DNA of 64,000 nt from Eledone cirrhosa. Taxonomy: Eukaryota. Every line of letters begins with the position of its first letter. The first letter of the stretch is position 1. The position numbers and the translations under genes were made by a program. Below are positions 16,627-27,084 of the stretch, piece after piece. The notes under the pieces were generated by a model that was not told where the DNA came from, did no database searches, and was given only the letters and a program-made list of their open reading frames with translations. Location: positions 1,922,001 through 1,986,000 of the forward strand of contig OZ024765.1 in NCBI GenBank assembly GCA_964016885.1, given 5' to 3'.

Positions 16627-16701
16627 ATTCCATTTACCAAAGGTTTCACGAAGACAGACGAGCTCAACACAGACGTCTGAAATCACTCATCAGAATGAAA
16701 T
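16627..16701 (-). ncRNA. Hammerhead ribozyme motif, family D
   Basis: AUUUCAUU-CUGAUGA-GUGA UUU CAGACG(loop)CGUCUG UCU UCGU-GAAACC UUU GGUA-AAUGGAAU. Confidence 0.72.
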
Positions 16702-18177
16702 TTTATTTTATATATATATCATCATCATCACCGTTTTATGTCTATTCTTCCACGTCTATGTCTATTCTGTTGTGGGTAGTGTCCAGTCGGCTGACCTTGT
16801 CTTGCTCATCCGGGAACTGATTTTGGCTTGATTTCTCAGCTGGATGCCCTTCCTAAGACCAACCCCATTTACAGCGAGTACTCTGAGCTTTTTTACCGTG
16901 GCACCTCCACGACCACTTTATGGTGTGGGCTGGTTGCTTTTTTTGTCGTGATACCTCCATGTCCACTTTGCAGTGGGAAGGGGTGAGGGCATGTTGTCTA
17001 TATGCTTCAGCTTCAGCTTGTACCCATGGGTCGTCTGTATTACTGCGTGACGCCAGGGATCACGGCCGTGTGTCATCGCCTTTGAGAAGTGCAATTGGGC
17101 AAGGTCTGCTTTTATCACCTCATCTCATATAAATATATATGTATATATACATACATATATAAATATATATATATACATACATATAAAAATATATATACAT
17201 ACATATATAAATATATACATACATACATATAAAAATATATATACATACATATATAAATATATATATGTATATATATATTTTCATATATATATTAAAGTTA
17301 CACATCAAAAAGACCAAATATATGGGACAAATAAATGAAAGGATTTATCCTCTTGAGCCACTCACTGGGCAATGCAGTTTTGTACTTTTATGTAAGGACC
17401 TTTGTTAAGTTATGTTCCAGACATCACCTTAATAATGAGAAAGTTAGTTATATCACTAAACCTCTCAGACTCTGAATTATTTTCAAAATTAATAGAAAAA
17501 CCACAGACAGAGTCTTTAATTAGAAATATGGTAACGAAAGGGTTAATTAATTAGAAATATGGTAACGAAAGGGTTCAAGTGTTTATATTTATCTGAAAAC
17601 CTTCCATCATAATTTTATGTAAGAACTTTAATTAAGTTATGTTCCAAACACCAGGTTAATAAAACAGTGTCTTGCATTAGAAATATGGTAATGAAAGGGT
17701 TCAAGTGTTTATAATTATCTTTAAAAATCCTCCATCGTATATTTTATGTAAGAACCTTTGTTAAGTTATGTTCTAAACACCAAGTTAATGAAATTCTTGA
17801 TTATTTTCAAAATGATTTAATATCATAAGTAGAGTCTTTCATTAGAAATATGGCAAGTGTAGGATTACGATGTTCCAAAAACCAATTATTAATTTATGCG
17901 AAAATTGGTTATATTATTAAATTACTCAAAATTCTTAACTATTTATAAAAATGCACACAATTATTTCGTTTTCCCATTTTCTTTTTTTGTAATTATATAT
18001 TCATCTTATAAATTGGCCAAACATACAGAACAAGAAAAAAGTATTAGAAAGTACTATAAATGCCATAAATGAGAGCAAAAGGAGGGAAAGAACAAGGGCT
18101 ATTGGACAAAATTTTCAAATATATTTGATAAAACAGACAGTGTCTTTCATTAGAAATATGGTAATGAAAATGCTAAG

Positions 18178-19540
18178 ATCATCATCATCATCGTTTAATG
18201 TCCATTTTCCATGCTAGCATGGGTTAGACGGTTTTGTTCCATTTGATGTGGGAATGGTCAGGAGACCATGTCTCACTCGTTTGGAAGTATCTCTGGCAGG
18301 TTTTTTTTACAGCTGGATGCCCTTCCTAACAACAACCACATTTATAGTGTGGACTGGGAGCCTTTTCACTGTGTCTCCTACATGGCCACTGTACAGTATG
18401 GACTGGGAGCCTTTTTACTGTGTCTCCTACACAACCTCTTTACAGTGAGGACTGGGAGCCTTTTCACTGTGTCTCCTACATGGCCACCGTACAGTATGGA
18501 CTGGGAGCCTTTTTACTGTGTCTCCTACACAACCTCTTTACAGTGTGGTCTGGGAGCCTTTTTACTGTGTCTCCTACACAACCTCTTTACAGTGAGGACT
18601 GGGAGCCTTTTTACTGTGTCTCCTACACAACCTCTTTACAGTGTGGACTGGGAGCCTTTTTACTGTGTCTCCTACACAACCTCTTTACAGTGTGGACTGG
18701 GAGCCTTTTTACTGTGTCTCCTACACAACCTCTTTACAGTGAGGACTGGGAGCCTTTTCACTGTGTCTCCTACATGGCCACCGTACAGTATGGACTGGGA
18801 GCCTTTTTACTGTGTCTCCTACATAACCAGTTTACAGTGTGGACTGGGAGCCTTTTTACTGTGTCTCCTACACAACCTCTTTACAGTGTGAACTGGGAGC
18901 CTTTTTACTGTGTCTCCTACACAACCTCTTTACAGTGTGGACTGGGAGCCTTTTTACTGTGTCTCCTACACAACCTCTTTACAGTGTGGACTGGGAGCCT
19001 TTTTACTGTGTCTCCTACACAACCTCTTTACAGTGTGGACTGGGAGCCTTTTTACTGTGTCTCCTACACAACCTCTTTACAGTATGAACTGGGAGCCTTT
19101 TTACTGTGTCTCCTACACAACCTCTTTACAGTATGGACTGGGAGCCTTTTTACTGTGTCTCCTACACAACCTCTTTACAGTATGAACTGGGAGCCTTTTT
19201 ACTGTGTCTCCTACACAACCTCTTTACAGTATGGACTGGGAGCCTTTTTACTGTGTCTCCTACACAACCTCTTTACAGTGTGGACTGGGAGCCTTTTCAC
19301 CGTGCCCCCTACACAGCCACCTTACAGTGTGGACTGTCGTGTCATCGACAAAGTGGACGGAACGGGAGAGGGAGGATGGAGTTGGGTGTGGGGGTGAGGT
19401 GTACATTGGGTTAAGAGGTACCTACTGACTGTAGGTTTGTATGCAATGGCTGTCAGGTCTTCTGTACAACTGCATGGCACCAAAAAAGGTCTCGATCCAG
19501 TGTTATTGTCTTAGAGAGGTGTAGGTGGCCAAGGTCAGCT
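18178..19540 (-). mobile_element. RTE-type LINE 3' region containing an expanded 49-bp minisatellite
   Basis: RTE tail (catcatcgtttaatgtcc...catgctagcatgggttagacgg) followed by ~20 units at 18345-19335. Relatives with 2-3 units lie at 30730-31100 and 46780-47240. Confidence 0.75.
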
Positions 19541-20554
19541 CCCAAACACCAGTTAATAAGACAGTGTCTTTCATTAGAAATATGGTAATGAAAGGTTTAA
19601 AGTGTTTATATTTATCTAAAACCTTCCATCTAATTTTATGTAAGAACTTTTGTTAAGTTATGTTCCAAATACCAAGTTTCTTTCATTAGAAATATGGTAA
19701 CAAAAGAATTTAAATATTTATGTTTATAATAAAGAAAACACTTCCATCATAATTTTAACCTGCGTTAAGTTATGTTCCAAACACCAGCTTAATAACGAGA
19801 AAGATAGTTATATTATTAAATTTCTCAGAATTATTTGATAAACATAGGTAATGTCTTTCATTAGAAATATAACAGATATCTGTATACGACATGTACCAAG
19901 CACCAACTTGATAATGAGAAAGATATATATTTATATTAAATTCCTCAAAATTATTTATTACTTTCAAAATTATTTGAAAACCACAAACGGTGTCATTTAT
20001 TAGAAATATGGTAATAAAAGAGTTTAAATATTTATATTTATAATAAAAATCCTTTCCATCATAATTTTATATAAGAACCTTTGTTAAGTTATGTTCCAAA
20101 CACCAGTTTAATATTATTTTAAAACCAGTGTCTTTCATTAGAAATATGGTAATGAAAGACTGAAATATTTATATTTAAAGTAAACAACCCTTCCATCATA
20201 ATTTTATATAAGAACCTTTGTTAAGTTATGTTTCAAACACCAGCTTAATTTTATTTGAAAACCAAACAGCAGTTTTTGGTAATGAAAATTATTTGATAAC
20301 ACAGGGAGTGTCTTTCATTAATATTCTACAGATATAGAATATTAAGATATATTCACAAAACTAACTTAATAATGAGAAAGATATTTATATATTACTAAAT
20401 TCTTCAGAATTCTAAATTATTTTCAAAATAATCAGCATCTTTCATTAGAAATATGGTAGATGTTGGATCAATTATTATAACTGGTTGACAAAACTAGGTT
20501 TAGTTTGATAGAAACAGCAAGCTTTAACCCTTTAGTATTTACATTACTCTATAT

Positions 20555-20600
20555 CAGTGGTTCCCAACCTTTTTTGCTCCATGCCACACAGCAACATCTA
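20555..20600 (+). mobile_element. hAT/Charlie-like terminal fragment
   Basis: CAGTGGTTCCCAACCTTTTT resembles hAT-Charlie TIRs; no partner TIR was found. Confidence 0.35.
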
Positions 20601-20659
20601 AAAAATGTTTATGTTCCCCTTCGATATAAAAACAAGTTTTGTTCAATATCCTGCAAGAT

Positions 20660-21725
20660 ATGTGAGATAAAGCCTTTACTGTGAAAATACAATAGTATAT
20701 ATAGAGTAATGTAAATGTTATGTGAGATATTATGTGAGGTAAAGCCTTTACTGTGAAAATACAATAGTATATATAGAGTAATGTAAATGTTATGTGAGAT
20801 ATTATGTGAGGTAAAGCCTTTACTGTGAAAATACAATAGTATATATAGAGTAATGTAAATGTTATGTGAGATATTATGTGAGGTAAAGCCTTTACTGTGA
20901 AAATACAATAGTATATATAGAGTAATATAAATGTTATGTGAGATATTATGTGAGGTAAAGCCTTTACTGTGAAAATACAATAGTATATATAGAGTAATGT
21001 AAATGTTATGTGAGATATTATGTGAGGTAAAGCCTTTACTGTGAAAATACAATAGTATATATAAAGTAATGTAAATGTTATGTGAGATATTATGTGAGGT
21101 AAAGCCTTTACTGTGACAATACAATAGTATATATAGAGTAATATAAATGTTATATGAGATATTATGTGAGATAAAGCCTTTACTGTGAAAATACAATAGT
21201 ATATATAGAGTAATGTAAATGGTATGTGAGATATTATGTGAGATAAAGCCTTTACTGTGAAAATACAATAGTATATATAAAGTAATGTAAATGTTATGTG
21301 AGATATTATGTGAGGTAAAGCCTTTACTGTGACAATACAATAGTATATATAGAGTAATATAAATGTTATATGAGATATTATGTGAGGTAAAGCCTTTACT
21401 GTGAAAATACAATAGTATATATAAAGTAATGTAAATGTTATGTGAGATATTATGTGAGGTAAAGCCTTTACTGTGACAATACAATAGTATATATAGAGTA
21501 ATATAAATGTTATATGAGATATTATGTGAGGTAAAGCCTTTACTGTGACAATACAATAGTATATATAGAGTAATATAAATGTTATATGAGATATTATGTG
21601 AGGTAAAGCCTTTACTGTGAAAATACAATAGTATATATAGAGTAATGTAAATGTTATATGAGATATTATGTGAGGTAAAGCCTTTACTGTGAAAATACAA
21701 TAGTATATATAGAGTAATGTAAATG
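20660..21725. repeat. 72-bp minisatellite, ~15 copies (also 24820-25063 and 41420-41775)
   Basis: Unit aaagcctttactgtgaaaatacaatagtatatatagagtaatgtaaatgttatgtgagatattatgtgaggt. Confidence 0.95.
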
Positions 21726-26632: not shown

Positions 26633-26697
<65 letters not shown>

Positions 26698-26827
26698 TAT
26701 ACATGATGACCGCAACACGATTTCCAGTAATGATATTACTTGACACCTAAACATGAGCAGTCAGGTGGCTTAGTTCAGATCTAGCTCTCGAAACAGCCAG
26801 AGCTCAGCCGTCGGGGTCCTACTCGTT

Positions 26828-26863
<36 letters not shown>

Positions 26864-26957
26864 AAACTTAAACGGGAACAAAAACAGAGAAGCAGTACAT
26901 ACAGAGTATGCAGGTGAAACTCCCGGATAACAAGGTTCTTTATCGATGATATATATA

Positions 26958-27000
<43 letters not shown>

Positions 27001-27024
27001 GTAATAAACAACATAAGATAATTA

Positions 27025-27084
27025 TTTCATTTACTAGTGGTTTCTTGAAAGCAAACAAATTTGCTTTCAGTCATCAGAATGAAA
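27025..27084 (-). ncRNA. Hammerhead ribozyme motif, family D
   Basis: UUUCAUU-CUGAUGA-C UGAAAGCAAA UUUG UUUGCUUUCA A-GAAAC CACUA GUA-AAUGAAA, with a 10-bp stem II. Confidence 0.7.

Follow-up and report, generated by a model that had tools for sequence, protein, structure and literature searches.

Diverged stem II helices in a dispersed hammerhead repeat of Eledone cirrhosa

Two copies of a hammerhead repeat, family D, lie in a 64-kb window of Eledone cirrhosa DNA (the whole stretch that we analyzed), and the original prediction made for this locus held that their stems II were unrelated in sequence and had been completely exchanged between otherwise common flanks. Was stem II of this repeat replaced as a unit, or are the two stems diverged forms of one helix?

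Two hammerhead motifs on the minus strand

A pattern search of the window returned exactly two family D matches, both on the minus strand (Table 1), and none in 100 shuffles; blastn and nhmmer found no further copies within the 64 kb. Both copies, referred to below as D1 and D2, are solitary (0 of 2 in tandem arrangement). They have an identical 3′ end, 35 nt beyond the cleavage site and in (AT)n, and different 5′ ends, D1 lacking the more upstream part. The common flanks of the original prediction held up, with 58 of 64 letters identical (44/50 on the 3′ side and 14/14 on the 5′ side), as did the common stem I (7–8 bp) and GUA site, and CUGAUGA and GAAA are likewise present in both copies.

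Table 1. Family D features in the window, with positions counted from its first letter
Feature	Position	Strand	Remarks
D1, whole fragment between (AT)n runs	16600..16710	-	About 10 nt upstream of stem I
D1 type I hammerhead motif	16627..16701	-	
D1 stem I	16701-16694 / 16634-16627	-	
D1 CUGAUGA	16693-16687	-	
D1 stem II region	16648..16686	-	39 nt; G.U, U.G, G-C, A-U, 3x3 internal loop, 6 firm pairs, 13-nt loop
D1 GAAA	16647-16644	-	
D1 stem III		-	3 bp with UUU loop
D1 predicted cleavage	after A16635	-	
D1 predicted weak 3′ hairpin	16607..16637	-	Overlaps cleavage site and stem I; exclusive with ribozyme fold
D2, whole fragment between (AT)n runs	26997..27125	-	About 40 nt upstream of stem I
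D2 type I hammerhead motif	27025..27084	-	
D2 stem I	27084-27078 / 27031-27025	-	
D2 CUGAUGA	27077-27071	-	
D2 stem II region	27045..27070	-	26 nt; C.A adjoining core, 10 Watson-Crick pairs, 4-nt loop
D2 GAAA	27044-27041	-	
D2 predicted cleavage	after A27032	-	
D2 counterpart of predicted 3′ hairpin	27004..27034	-	
Stretch matching optional 3′ extension	48008..48075	-	Fused to 5′ end of another hammerhead family's copy; putative assignment to D

The core (C3-U4-G5-A6-N7-G8-A9, G12-A13-A14-A15.1, and U16.1-H17) is present in D1 and D2, and three helices, open at stem I, can be drawn around it in both, with low predicted probabilities for stem I and basal stem II of D1 (at most 0.04) and for stem III of D2 (0.01). 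D1 and D2 are real type I hammerhead motifs. Missing from both is a purine–pyrimidine pair at 10.1-11.1, where D1 has G.U, D2 has C.A, and D2-like reads have U, C, or A opposite A. This pair is usual rather than absolute, with exceptions in PMC4209133 (Fig. S3) and PMC7229834; a literature search on natural 10.1-11.1 mismatches returned nothing. No Rfam hammerhead model matched at gathering score over the window, and over 16500-27200 the 116 rows listed at E<=10 included none. Two other identities for the locus were discarded: the plus-strand reading has no CUGANGA...GAAA order (the D1 plus-strand fold has z -0.25), and C/D-box snoRNA candidates at D1 (Z105, E 0.68; snR54, E 4.8) fall far below gathering scores and have only the CUGA/UGAUGA letters in common with it.

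Predicted folding differs between the copies. The isolated stem II region of D2 has a fold z of -4.2, with 8 of 10 pairs at a predicted probability of at least 0.9. In D1, the six distal pairs are predicted at 0.95–0.97 and the four basal pairs, two of them G.U, at no more than 0.01; these basal pairs and stem I (at most 0.04) are predicted to be improbable because a competing hairpin wins. The hammerhead fold lies 8.0 kcal/mol above the minimum in D1 versus 2.6 in D2, under an energy model that ignores tertiary core contacts, while stem III of D1 reaches a predicted probability of about 0.9 without the tail. The consensus energy of the predicted weak 3′ hairpin (Table 1) is -3.95 kcal/mol, with two one-sided changes and no two-sided ones. 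D2 itself bears a private change at 27035 through which its third stem III pair is lost; another letter stands there in 95–99.9% of read depth, and the family's majority form in the reads restores the pair. D1 and D2 are probably poor cutters, D1 being predicted to misfold and D2 being one stem III pair short. The earlier description of both stems II as well paired thus fits D2, with its 10 Watson–Crick pairs, and the distal six of D1, but it missed the C.A at the base of D2 and does not extend to the basal D1 pairs, which would almost never form.

Divergence of stem II in the window and in reads

The helices named in the original prediction are present as written. Placed in register without gaps, the arms of D1 and D2 have 6 of 12 and 7 of 12 letters in common (13/24 in total; P = 0.019 against shuffled pair columns, or 0.007 with flips). 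Five pairs are identical (3, 4, 8, 9, and 11), two have one-sided changes, and one has a two-sided change. MAFFT also aligns the two stems, with one 13-nt gap, and the differences consist of pair swaps plus two features of D1, its 3x3 internal loop and the greater length of its terminal loop. The D1 stem II region also contains an internal repeat (9/10, period 15).

Sequence is far freer in stem II than in the flanks (13/24 vs. 58/64; Fisher P=3e-4), which speaks for a weaker form of the exchange idea, in which subfamilies would trade stem II as a module through template switching or gene conversion, the crossovers falling in the conserved CUGANGA and GAAA boxes or within the stem itself. The window holds comparable cases: a neighboring family shows the stem II effect better than D does (flank 27/28, arms 7/20, six compensatory changes), and two copies of family A, 40810- and 31736+, agree at 28/28 core-flank letters and only 8/20 arm letters. 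Yet family A has a graded intermediate (14369+), and beyond its core the DNA has diverged roughly as far as stem II has (23/40 downstream, 19/40 upstream), so it is the core that is slow there rather than the stem that is foreign. In family D, the in-register alignment with its five identical pairs likewise argues against an exchanged module.

Reads of the species carry the same argument further. The survey covered four runs, from at most three samples and two studies, and used a 137-bp reference that represents D2 only and is too short to reveal arrays elsewhere. Family D is abundant, with 1431 and 1519 contigs and 2061 and 1815 reads aligned to the D2 reference. Variation within stem II is concentrated in the loop (27056-27059, where insertions occur as well), and other changes keep pairing (G-C to G.U at 27047; A-U to G.U at 27061); the base after A9 in D2-like reads is U in 47–57%, C in 37–40%, and A in 5–15%. 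Stem II was not found unformable in most copies in these reads, the outcome that the original prediction had named against itself. The D1 subtype recurs in 19 contigs of one run, in a consensus of loose ends at 27044 (28/30 letters, by eye).

Between the subtypes stand intermediate forms, which are 30-letter consensus rows rather than phased single copies and whose agreement of 0.57–0.79 indicates that subtypes are mixed in them. The row of loose ends at 27049 (10 contigs in each of two runs) has, compared by eye, a self-complementary stem with a D2-like base, and its 3′-arm pairs 6–11 match D1 at 6/6 and D2 at 3/6; overall it matches each copy at 16/24, with 5 of the 24 letters coming from the D2 reference. 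The row at 27053 (12 contigs in each of two runs; 172 and 173 reads) combines the basal 5′-arm positions 1–5 of D2 with the distal positions 8–12 of D1, matching each at 8/12 by eye. Relative to this central form, D2 has two-sided swaps at pairs 6, 7, and 10, and D1 has three changed 5′-arm letters. Such a half-D1, half-D2 stem favors exchange to the extent that it could also be a recombinant. Because halfway forms occur in the same species, however, we consider that the stems drifted apart rather than being swapped: as far as sequence comparison goes, they are most likely diverged homologues, probably of one ancestral helix in two subfamilies, and exchange is quite unlikely. The claim of unrelated, completely exchanged stems does not survive the register alignment, the MAFFT alignment, and the intermediates; of the related claim that structure is conserved without sequence, kept pairing and the much freer sequence remain, in stems that are nonetheless alignable and bridged by intermediates. 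The false impression of module exchange arose from comparing just two copies, and is hereby corrected.

The reads also bear on whether the motif is simply a dead relic in a microsatellite-targeted repeat, its ribozyme structure not under selection. Defects in both window copies, the absence of an Rfam score for either, and the finding that the PAc hammerhead is not required for insertion in vitro (PMC11167929) would all suit a relic. But the core varies essentially only at N7 across thousands of aligned records (among the matches listed, the core variation is N7, at 27073, plus one G8 change from one or two read starts, with none in GAAA or GUA), stem changes keep pairing, and two-sided changes separate the subtypes, making a relic highly improbable.

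Insertion pattern and proposed origin

Part of the copies in the reads have an optional 3′ extension, seen as loose ends before 26993-27000 (24 and 36 contigs; 164 and 120+117 reads); its length would be about 65 bp if the matching stretch at 48008-48075 belongs to D. Opposite-strand joints at 27085-27106 amount to one contig and one to seven reads per row and may be library fold-backs, whereas an inverted copy beside the element is clear in family A, and neighboring families contain fold-back pairs with one-sided extension (about 87 bp in family A). Depth falls towards the 5′ side, with loose ends at 27087; clipping at a run of A accounts for part of this fall, which therefore argues only weakly for 5′ truncation. 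A pile-up of read ends at 27020/27023 in two runs was rejected as a ribozyme end, since it coincides with an AATT site and is attributed to restriction cutting in the RAD library (enzyme inferred). Fragments of Penelope-like terminal repeats fit the invariant 3′ end, the extension on part of the copies, the candidate inverted joints, and the location in (AT)n. Among the 150 of 304 non-repetitive window frames of at least 45 aa compared with Pfam, none was an RT or GIY-YIG remnant, and the only credible match was a host HRM exon; the D1 and D2 stubs are too short to include an ORF.

We favor, with a probability of about 0.75, the reading that D1 and D2 are dispersed fragments of one abundant hammerhead repeat, likely 5′-truncated Penelope-like terminal-repeat ends, whose stems II drifted from one ancestral helix in two subfamilies rather than being exchanged. 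The source element would be transcribed through its own terminal repeat; the element's protein would nick AT-rich DNA, and reverse transcription would usually start at one set internal position, 35 nt beyond where the ribozyme cuts; rarer starts farther downstream would produce the optional extension. With the start site past the cut site, the proposed template would be uncut RNA. Copying would usually halt early, leaving 110–130 bp stubs such as D1 and D2. Selection in source elements would preserve the sequence of the core, of both stem I and stem III, and of the 3′ end, but stem II only as a helix, so that pair swaps and loop growth would accumulate there; inserted copies would decay.

If the family were instead a non-LTR retrozyme, in which non-autonomous units repeat in tandem, the hammerhead is active as a monomer, and the RNA passes through a circular stage, D1 and D2 would be solo monomer pieces. 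A 3-bp stem III with triloop could act as a monomer, as in invertebrate retrozymes (PMC7761336), an axolotl retrozyme also has a non-canonical helix II base (PMC7229834), solo copies are recognized as a class (bioRxiv 10.64898/2026.07.22.740005), and no coding sequence was found. We nevertheless judge this origin unlikely, given that both copies are solitary rather than tandem, that the fixed 3′ end, optional extension, and candidate inverted joints form a Penelope pattern, and that the long stem II is unlike the 4-bp helix II of canonical retrozyme motifs. Because the bioRxiv study derives retrozymes from PLE terminal repeats, the two origins overlap.

On the preferred Penelope-like reading, D is one more species-level family among the many known Penelope-associated hammerheads. 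Its graded compensatory changes, with U-A, C.A, A.A, and G.U at the stem II base, provide a natural series for the junction geometries tolerated by a long-stem type I hammerhead, and it could help to test the role of the ribozyme in transposition, a question left open by PMC11167929. A bolder proposal, which we hold to be a long shot, is that Penelope-like elements here carry a distinct long-stemmed hammerhead class that is active without G10.1-C11.1, is switched off by the 3′ hairpin over the cut site, and has its stem II halves shuffled between subfamilies by template switching; if true, it would amount to a natural library of ribozyme domain swaps in thousands of copies.

Relation to known systems

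Scans for the D motif gave no hits in metagenomes or viral contigs. A relaxed scan gave three loci, all in bacterial-type coding DNA without D flanks, and three bacterial MAG loci among genome contigs were taken as chance by analogy with these. Family D is not described in the accessible portions of the papers retrieved on Penelope elements and hammerheads in cephalopods and octopus. Similar variants may already have been described by Luense et al. (2017) or by Arkhipova et al. (2017).

Long, variable, covarying helices II in Penelope-associated hammerheads are already published (PMC4209133), so the stem II variability of D is an ordinary case. Compared with the type I hammerheads in pLTRs of metazoan Penelope-like elements (Cervera & de la Pena 2014, PMC4209133), the variable base of D after A9 fits the consensus H, and Fig. 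S3 of that study also includes motifs in which helix III is small, position 17 is A17, and 10.1-11.1 is something other than G-C. D differs in stem I (7–8 vs. 4–5 bp), in stem II (10–13 vs. 7–8 bp), in stem III, which has 3 bp closing a 3-nt loop and is near-palindromic in D2-type copies but not palindromic in D1, in having an extra base before GAAA and no G10.1-C11.1, and in being known here without a linked ORF. D likewise departs from the PLE minimal hammerhead (min-HHR) consensus, which has an additional H following A9, a G10.1-C11.1 pair, and a helix III that is either absent or palindromic: the D2 type has an H-like variable base, but G-C is absent and helix III has 3 bp. In neighboring families, canonical minimal hammerheads at 36248+ and 48134+ fit that consensus in both extra base and G-C.

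Penelope-like insertions (Craig et al. 2021, PMC8557442; Frangieh et al. 2024, PMC11167929) are marked by 5′ truncation, an inverted copy, a tail on one side, and microsatellite targets. They resemble D in that the 3′ end is fixed and lies beyond the cut site, that a 3′ extension may follow it, and that there are (TA)n sites and, as candidates in D, opposite-strand joints, although the extension seems longer here (about 65 bp if 48008-48075 is part of it, and about 87 bp in family A) than their 30–40 bp. Naiads also have (TA)n targets, but lack canonical hammerheads. Animal non-LTR retrozymes (Cervera & de la Pena 2020, PMC7229834) are like D in having a type I hammerhead whose helix III, though short, can form, and in being non-coding, and one retrozyme family has a U.U mismatch at the helix II base; they are, however, tandem units of 170–400 nt in which helix II is short and, for the majority, loop–loop contacts are present, whereas D consists of solitary 110–130 bp stubs with a long helix II.

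Two family D motifs and their predicted folds

A motif scan recovered, on the minus strand, both hammerheads (copies D1 and D2 of family D) that the original prediction had placed in the window. The family D pattern has exactly these two matches, compared with 0 in 100 shuffles, and the generic hammerhead core pattern has 18 overlapping matches, compared with a shuffle mean of 0.33. No third family D copy was found within the window, and Rfam scored neither D1 nor D2 as a hammerhead. The copies are identical over stem I and CUGAUGA (14/14 letters) and agree at 44/50 letters from GAAA to the microsatellite; their 3′ ends are alike, 35 nt beyond the predicted cut site, and their 5′ ends are unequal, at ~10 nt (D1) and ~40 nt (D2) upstream of stem I. 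An 18-nt stretch at 7275-7292(-), upstream of the 7240(-) hammerhead, resembles the D2 upstream sequence at 27083-27099(-) (17/18, E 0.26), possibly by chance or as a common upstream signal.

Both stems II had been described as well paired. This holds for D2, with 10 Watson-Crick pairs (z -4.2, region in isolation), except at its base, a C.A apposition; in D1 it holds for six firm distal pairs and fails for the basal pairs, which, like stem I, have predicted probabilities of ≤0.04, since the stem I 5′ strand would pair instead with the beginning of stem II. The hammerhead fold lies 8.0 kcal/mol above the predicted minimum in D1 versus 2.6 in D2. In both copies the last 30 nt can alternatively pair with the cut site and the stem I 3′ strand in a weak hairpin (consensus -3.95 kcal/mol), within which two D1/D2 differences keep pairs, neither of them two-sided. 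Such a hairpin would exclude the ribozyme fold; that it acts as a switch or signals the start of reverse transcription is speculative.

Stem II variation in family D

Compared gap-free from the core outwards over 12 pairs, the stem II arms of D1 and D2 have 13/24 letters in common: pairs 3, 4, 8, 9, and 11 are identical, pairs 2 and 12 differ on one side, pair 10 differs on both, and pairs 5-7 are paired in D2 and form an internal loop in D1. MAFFT leaves this register unchanged, with a single 13-nt gap in the loop. Shuffled D2 pair columns reach this likeness in 1.9% of 200,000 trials (0.7% with flips), which taken alone is only suggestive of relatedness. The D1 loop contains a 9/10 repeat, with period 15, of the stretch forming the D1 3′ arm (45 of 5000 shuffles), so the longer loop may have grown by local duplication.

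As the main test of relatedness, we compared by eye the loose-end rows, consensuses of ~30 letters of read or contig ends departing from the D2 reference, named by position. Row 27044 (19 contigs of set X3, agreement 0.80) matches D1 at 28/30 letters, which establishes D1 as a real subtype. Rows 27049 (10 contigs in each contig set, agreement 0.57-0.67) and 27053 (12 contigs in each, 172 and 173 reads, agreement 0.57-0.79) carry stems between D1 and D2. The 27049 form in X3 is self-complementary across 13 pairs, shares 16/24 letters with each copy (5 of these letters being aligned reference), and matches D1 at 6/6 in 3′-arm pairs 6-11. In the 5′ arm of the 27053 form in set X1, the basal five letters are those of D2 and the distal five those of D1; from this central form, D2 is reached by three two-sided swaps, and D1 by three 5′-arm changes, a changed base, and a longer loop. 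Row 27031 (10 contigs, 0.61) has loop III and basal stem as in D1 with a different distal arm. Because the rows mix subtypes and are only part of all rows (231 others), they show presence rather than frequencies. The proposal that stems II were completely exchanged and unrelated in sequence is thus not borne out: they align in register and are bridged by intermediates.

These rows come from a single read alignment (D2 26992-27128, 80% likeness threshold) of two contig sets from one sample and two RAD read sets, covering at most three samples and two studies. With 1431 and 1519 contigs and 2061 and 1815 reads aligned, family D is abundant, though depth gives no copy number. Position 27035 has a letter other than that of D2 in 95-99.9% of depth, so the D2 change, which removes the third stem III pair, is private. 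In reads aligned to D2, A9 is followed by U (47-57%), C (37-40%), or A (5-15%), facing an A without a listed variant. Among the differences listed, core variation falls at N7 and at G8 (the latter in reads from one or two starts only), and the frequent stem II changes either affect the loop or convert Watson-Crick pairs to G.U; those at 27050, 27055, 27060, and 27064, tabulated unphased, would break pairs unless compensated.

Neighboring hammerheads and repeats

Approximately 19 hammerhead motifs, including families A and D, lie in the 64 kb on both strands; further type I families number at least four, several with U.U at the stem II base or palindromic stem III regions.

Features of the window
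Feature	Coordinates
D1	16627-16701(-)
D2	27025-27084(-)
Family A	6651-6715(-), 6874-6938(+), core starts 14237(-) and 14369(+), 23168-23233(-), 40753-40818(-), 31728-31793(+)
Family A head-to-head fold-back pairs	6491-6991, 14125-14593
Further type I family (i)	36248(+), 48134(+), 40872-41091
Further type I family (ii)	34784-34834(+), 44161-44211(-), 14686-14736(-)
Further type I family (iii)	55101-55142(+), 55389-55426(-)
Further type I family (iv)	7187-7244(-), 41234(-)
SINE-like repeat, ~330 bp, at least 7 copies	11500-11831, 12990-13320, 22122-22443, 31314-31649, 42117-42453, 47492-47814, 1665-1917
72-bp unit common to tandem arrays at three separate sites	20659-21725, 24816-25052, 41420-41770
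Other (AT)n-flanked repeat, fold-back arms, long one-sided extension	27167-27398, 26770-26829, 11296-11502, 51639-51926, 55563-55710
Hormone-receptor exon	~2996-3110(-)

The pattern described for family D is displayed more strongly by family A. Copies 6882+ and 31736+ share 27/28 core-flank letters and only 7/20 arm letters, and six two-sided changes separate their arms. Copy 14369+ falls between them (14/20 and 10/20 arm letters, respectively); outside the core, 6882+ and 31736+ have diverged too (23/40 and 19/40). These subtypes, with their intermediate and diverged surroundings, indicate that a free stem II within a slow core is the rule here; exchange is not needed. C.C occupies stem II pair 4 in 7/7 family A copies, and C replaces G12 in the two near 14.2-14.4 kb. 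Despite the diverged surroundings, GGTAYGT stands 27-46 nt upstream of the core in 7/7 copies; 8 of its 14 sites in the window are upstream of family A cores. Penelope elements carry an intron in their terminal repeat, and this 5′ splice donor-like motif is a candidate for it.

The window (GC 24-45%, 192 tandem-repeat rows) is animal DNA rich in microsatellites, and its general appearance would suit an octopus-like mollusk genome. One recognizable host exon, bordered by AG/GT, encodes a class B GPCR hormone-receptor domain (Pfam HRM, E 2e-9). If upstream introns of this gene cross the window, the minus-strand hammerheads would be in sense within its pre-mRNA, which would imply poor cutting. 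The SINE-like repeat has a tRNA-like head (Rfam tRNA, 30.7 bits, 11776-11832). The other (AT)n-flanked repeat has a GAAA-containing stretch, and no complete hammerhead core was seen in it.

Element identity and comparison with known systems

Family D is a real feature: a new family, though of a known kind, whose long-stem, non-G-C junction is somewhat unusual. Its copies sit at (AT)n sites. A 3′ extension is optional, occurring in 24 and 36 of the contigs and in 164 and 120+117 of the reads aligned to D2; joints to the opposite strand, directly upstream of stem I, are sparse. A match to this extension at 48008-48075 is joined directly onto the 5′ end of a canonical-type family copy. No Penelope-like element (PLE) ORF was found among the 150 of 304 window frames scanned, nor any relatives in metagenome, genome, or viral collections. 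We therefore infer PLE membership from sequence features; family D is possibly a retrozyme instead. Neighbors support the PLE reading: family A forms fold-back pairs with a long extension on one arm only (~87 nt, against a usual tail of 30-40 bp in the literature), and two key marks of the published minimal motif, its extra base and G-C pair, recur at 36248(+) and 48134(+).

Our literature searches turned up no paper describing family D, though one may exist. Cervera and de la Peña 2014 (PMC4209133) describe long helix II, covariation-rich families with extreme within-genome variability, motifs mostly single and dispersed, and weak cleavage; some motifs in their Fig. S3 have a small helix III, A17, and, at 10.1-11.1, A-U or U-A. 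An axolotl retrozyme (PMC7229834) has U.U at the helix II base; parts of PMC6765202, PMC7761336, PMC6962438, and bioRxiv 10.64898/2026.07.22.740005 served as further comparison. PMC8557442 describes PLEs with 5′ truncation, an inverted copy, a one-sided tail, and microsatellite bias, and family D is like these in its fixed 3′ end, differing 5′ ends, (AT)n sites, optional extension, and sparse opposite-strand joints. These features also fit reverse transcription that begins internally, downstream of a protein-assisted hammerhead left uncut (PMC11167929).
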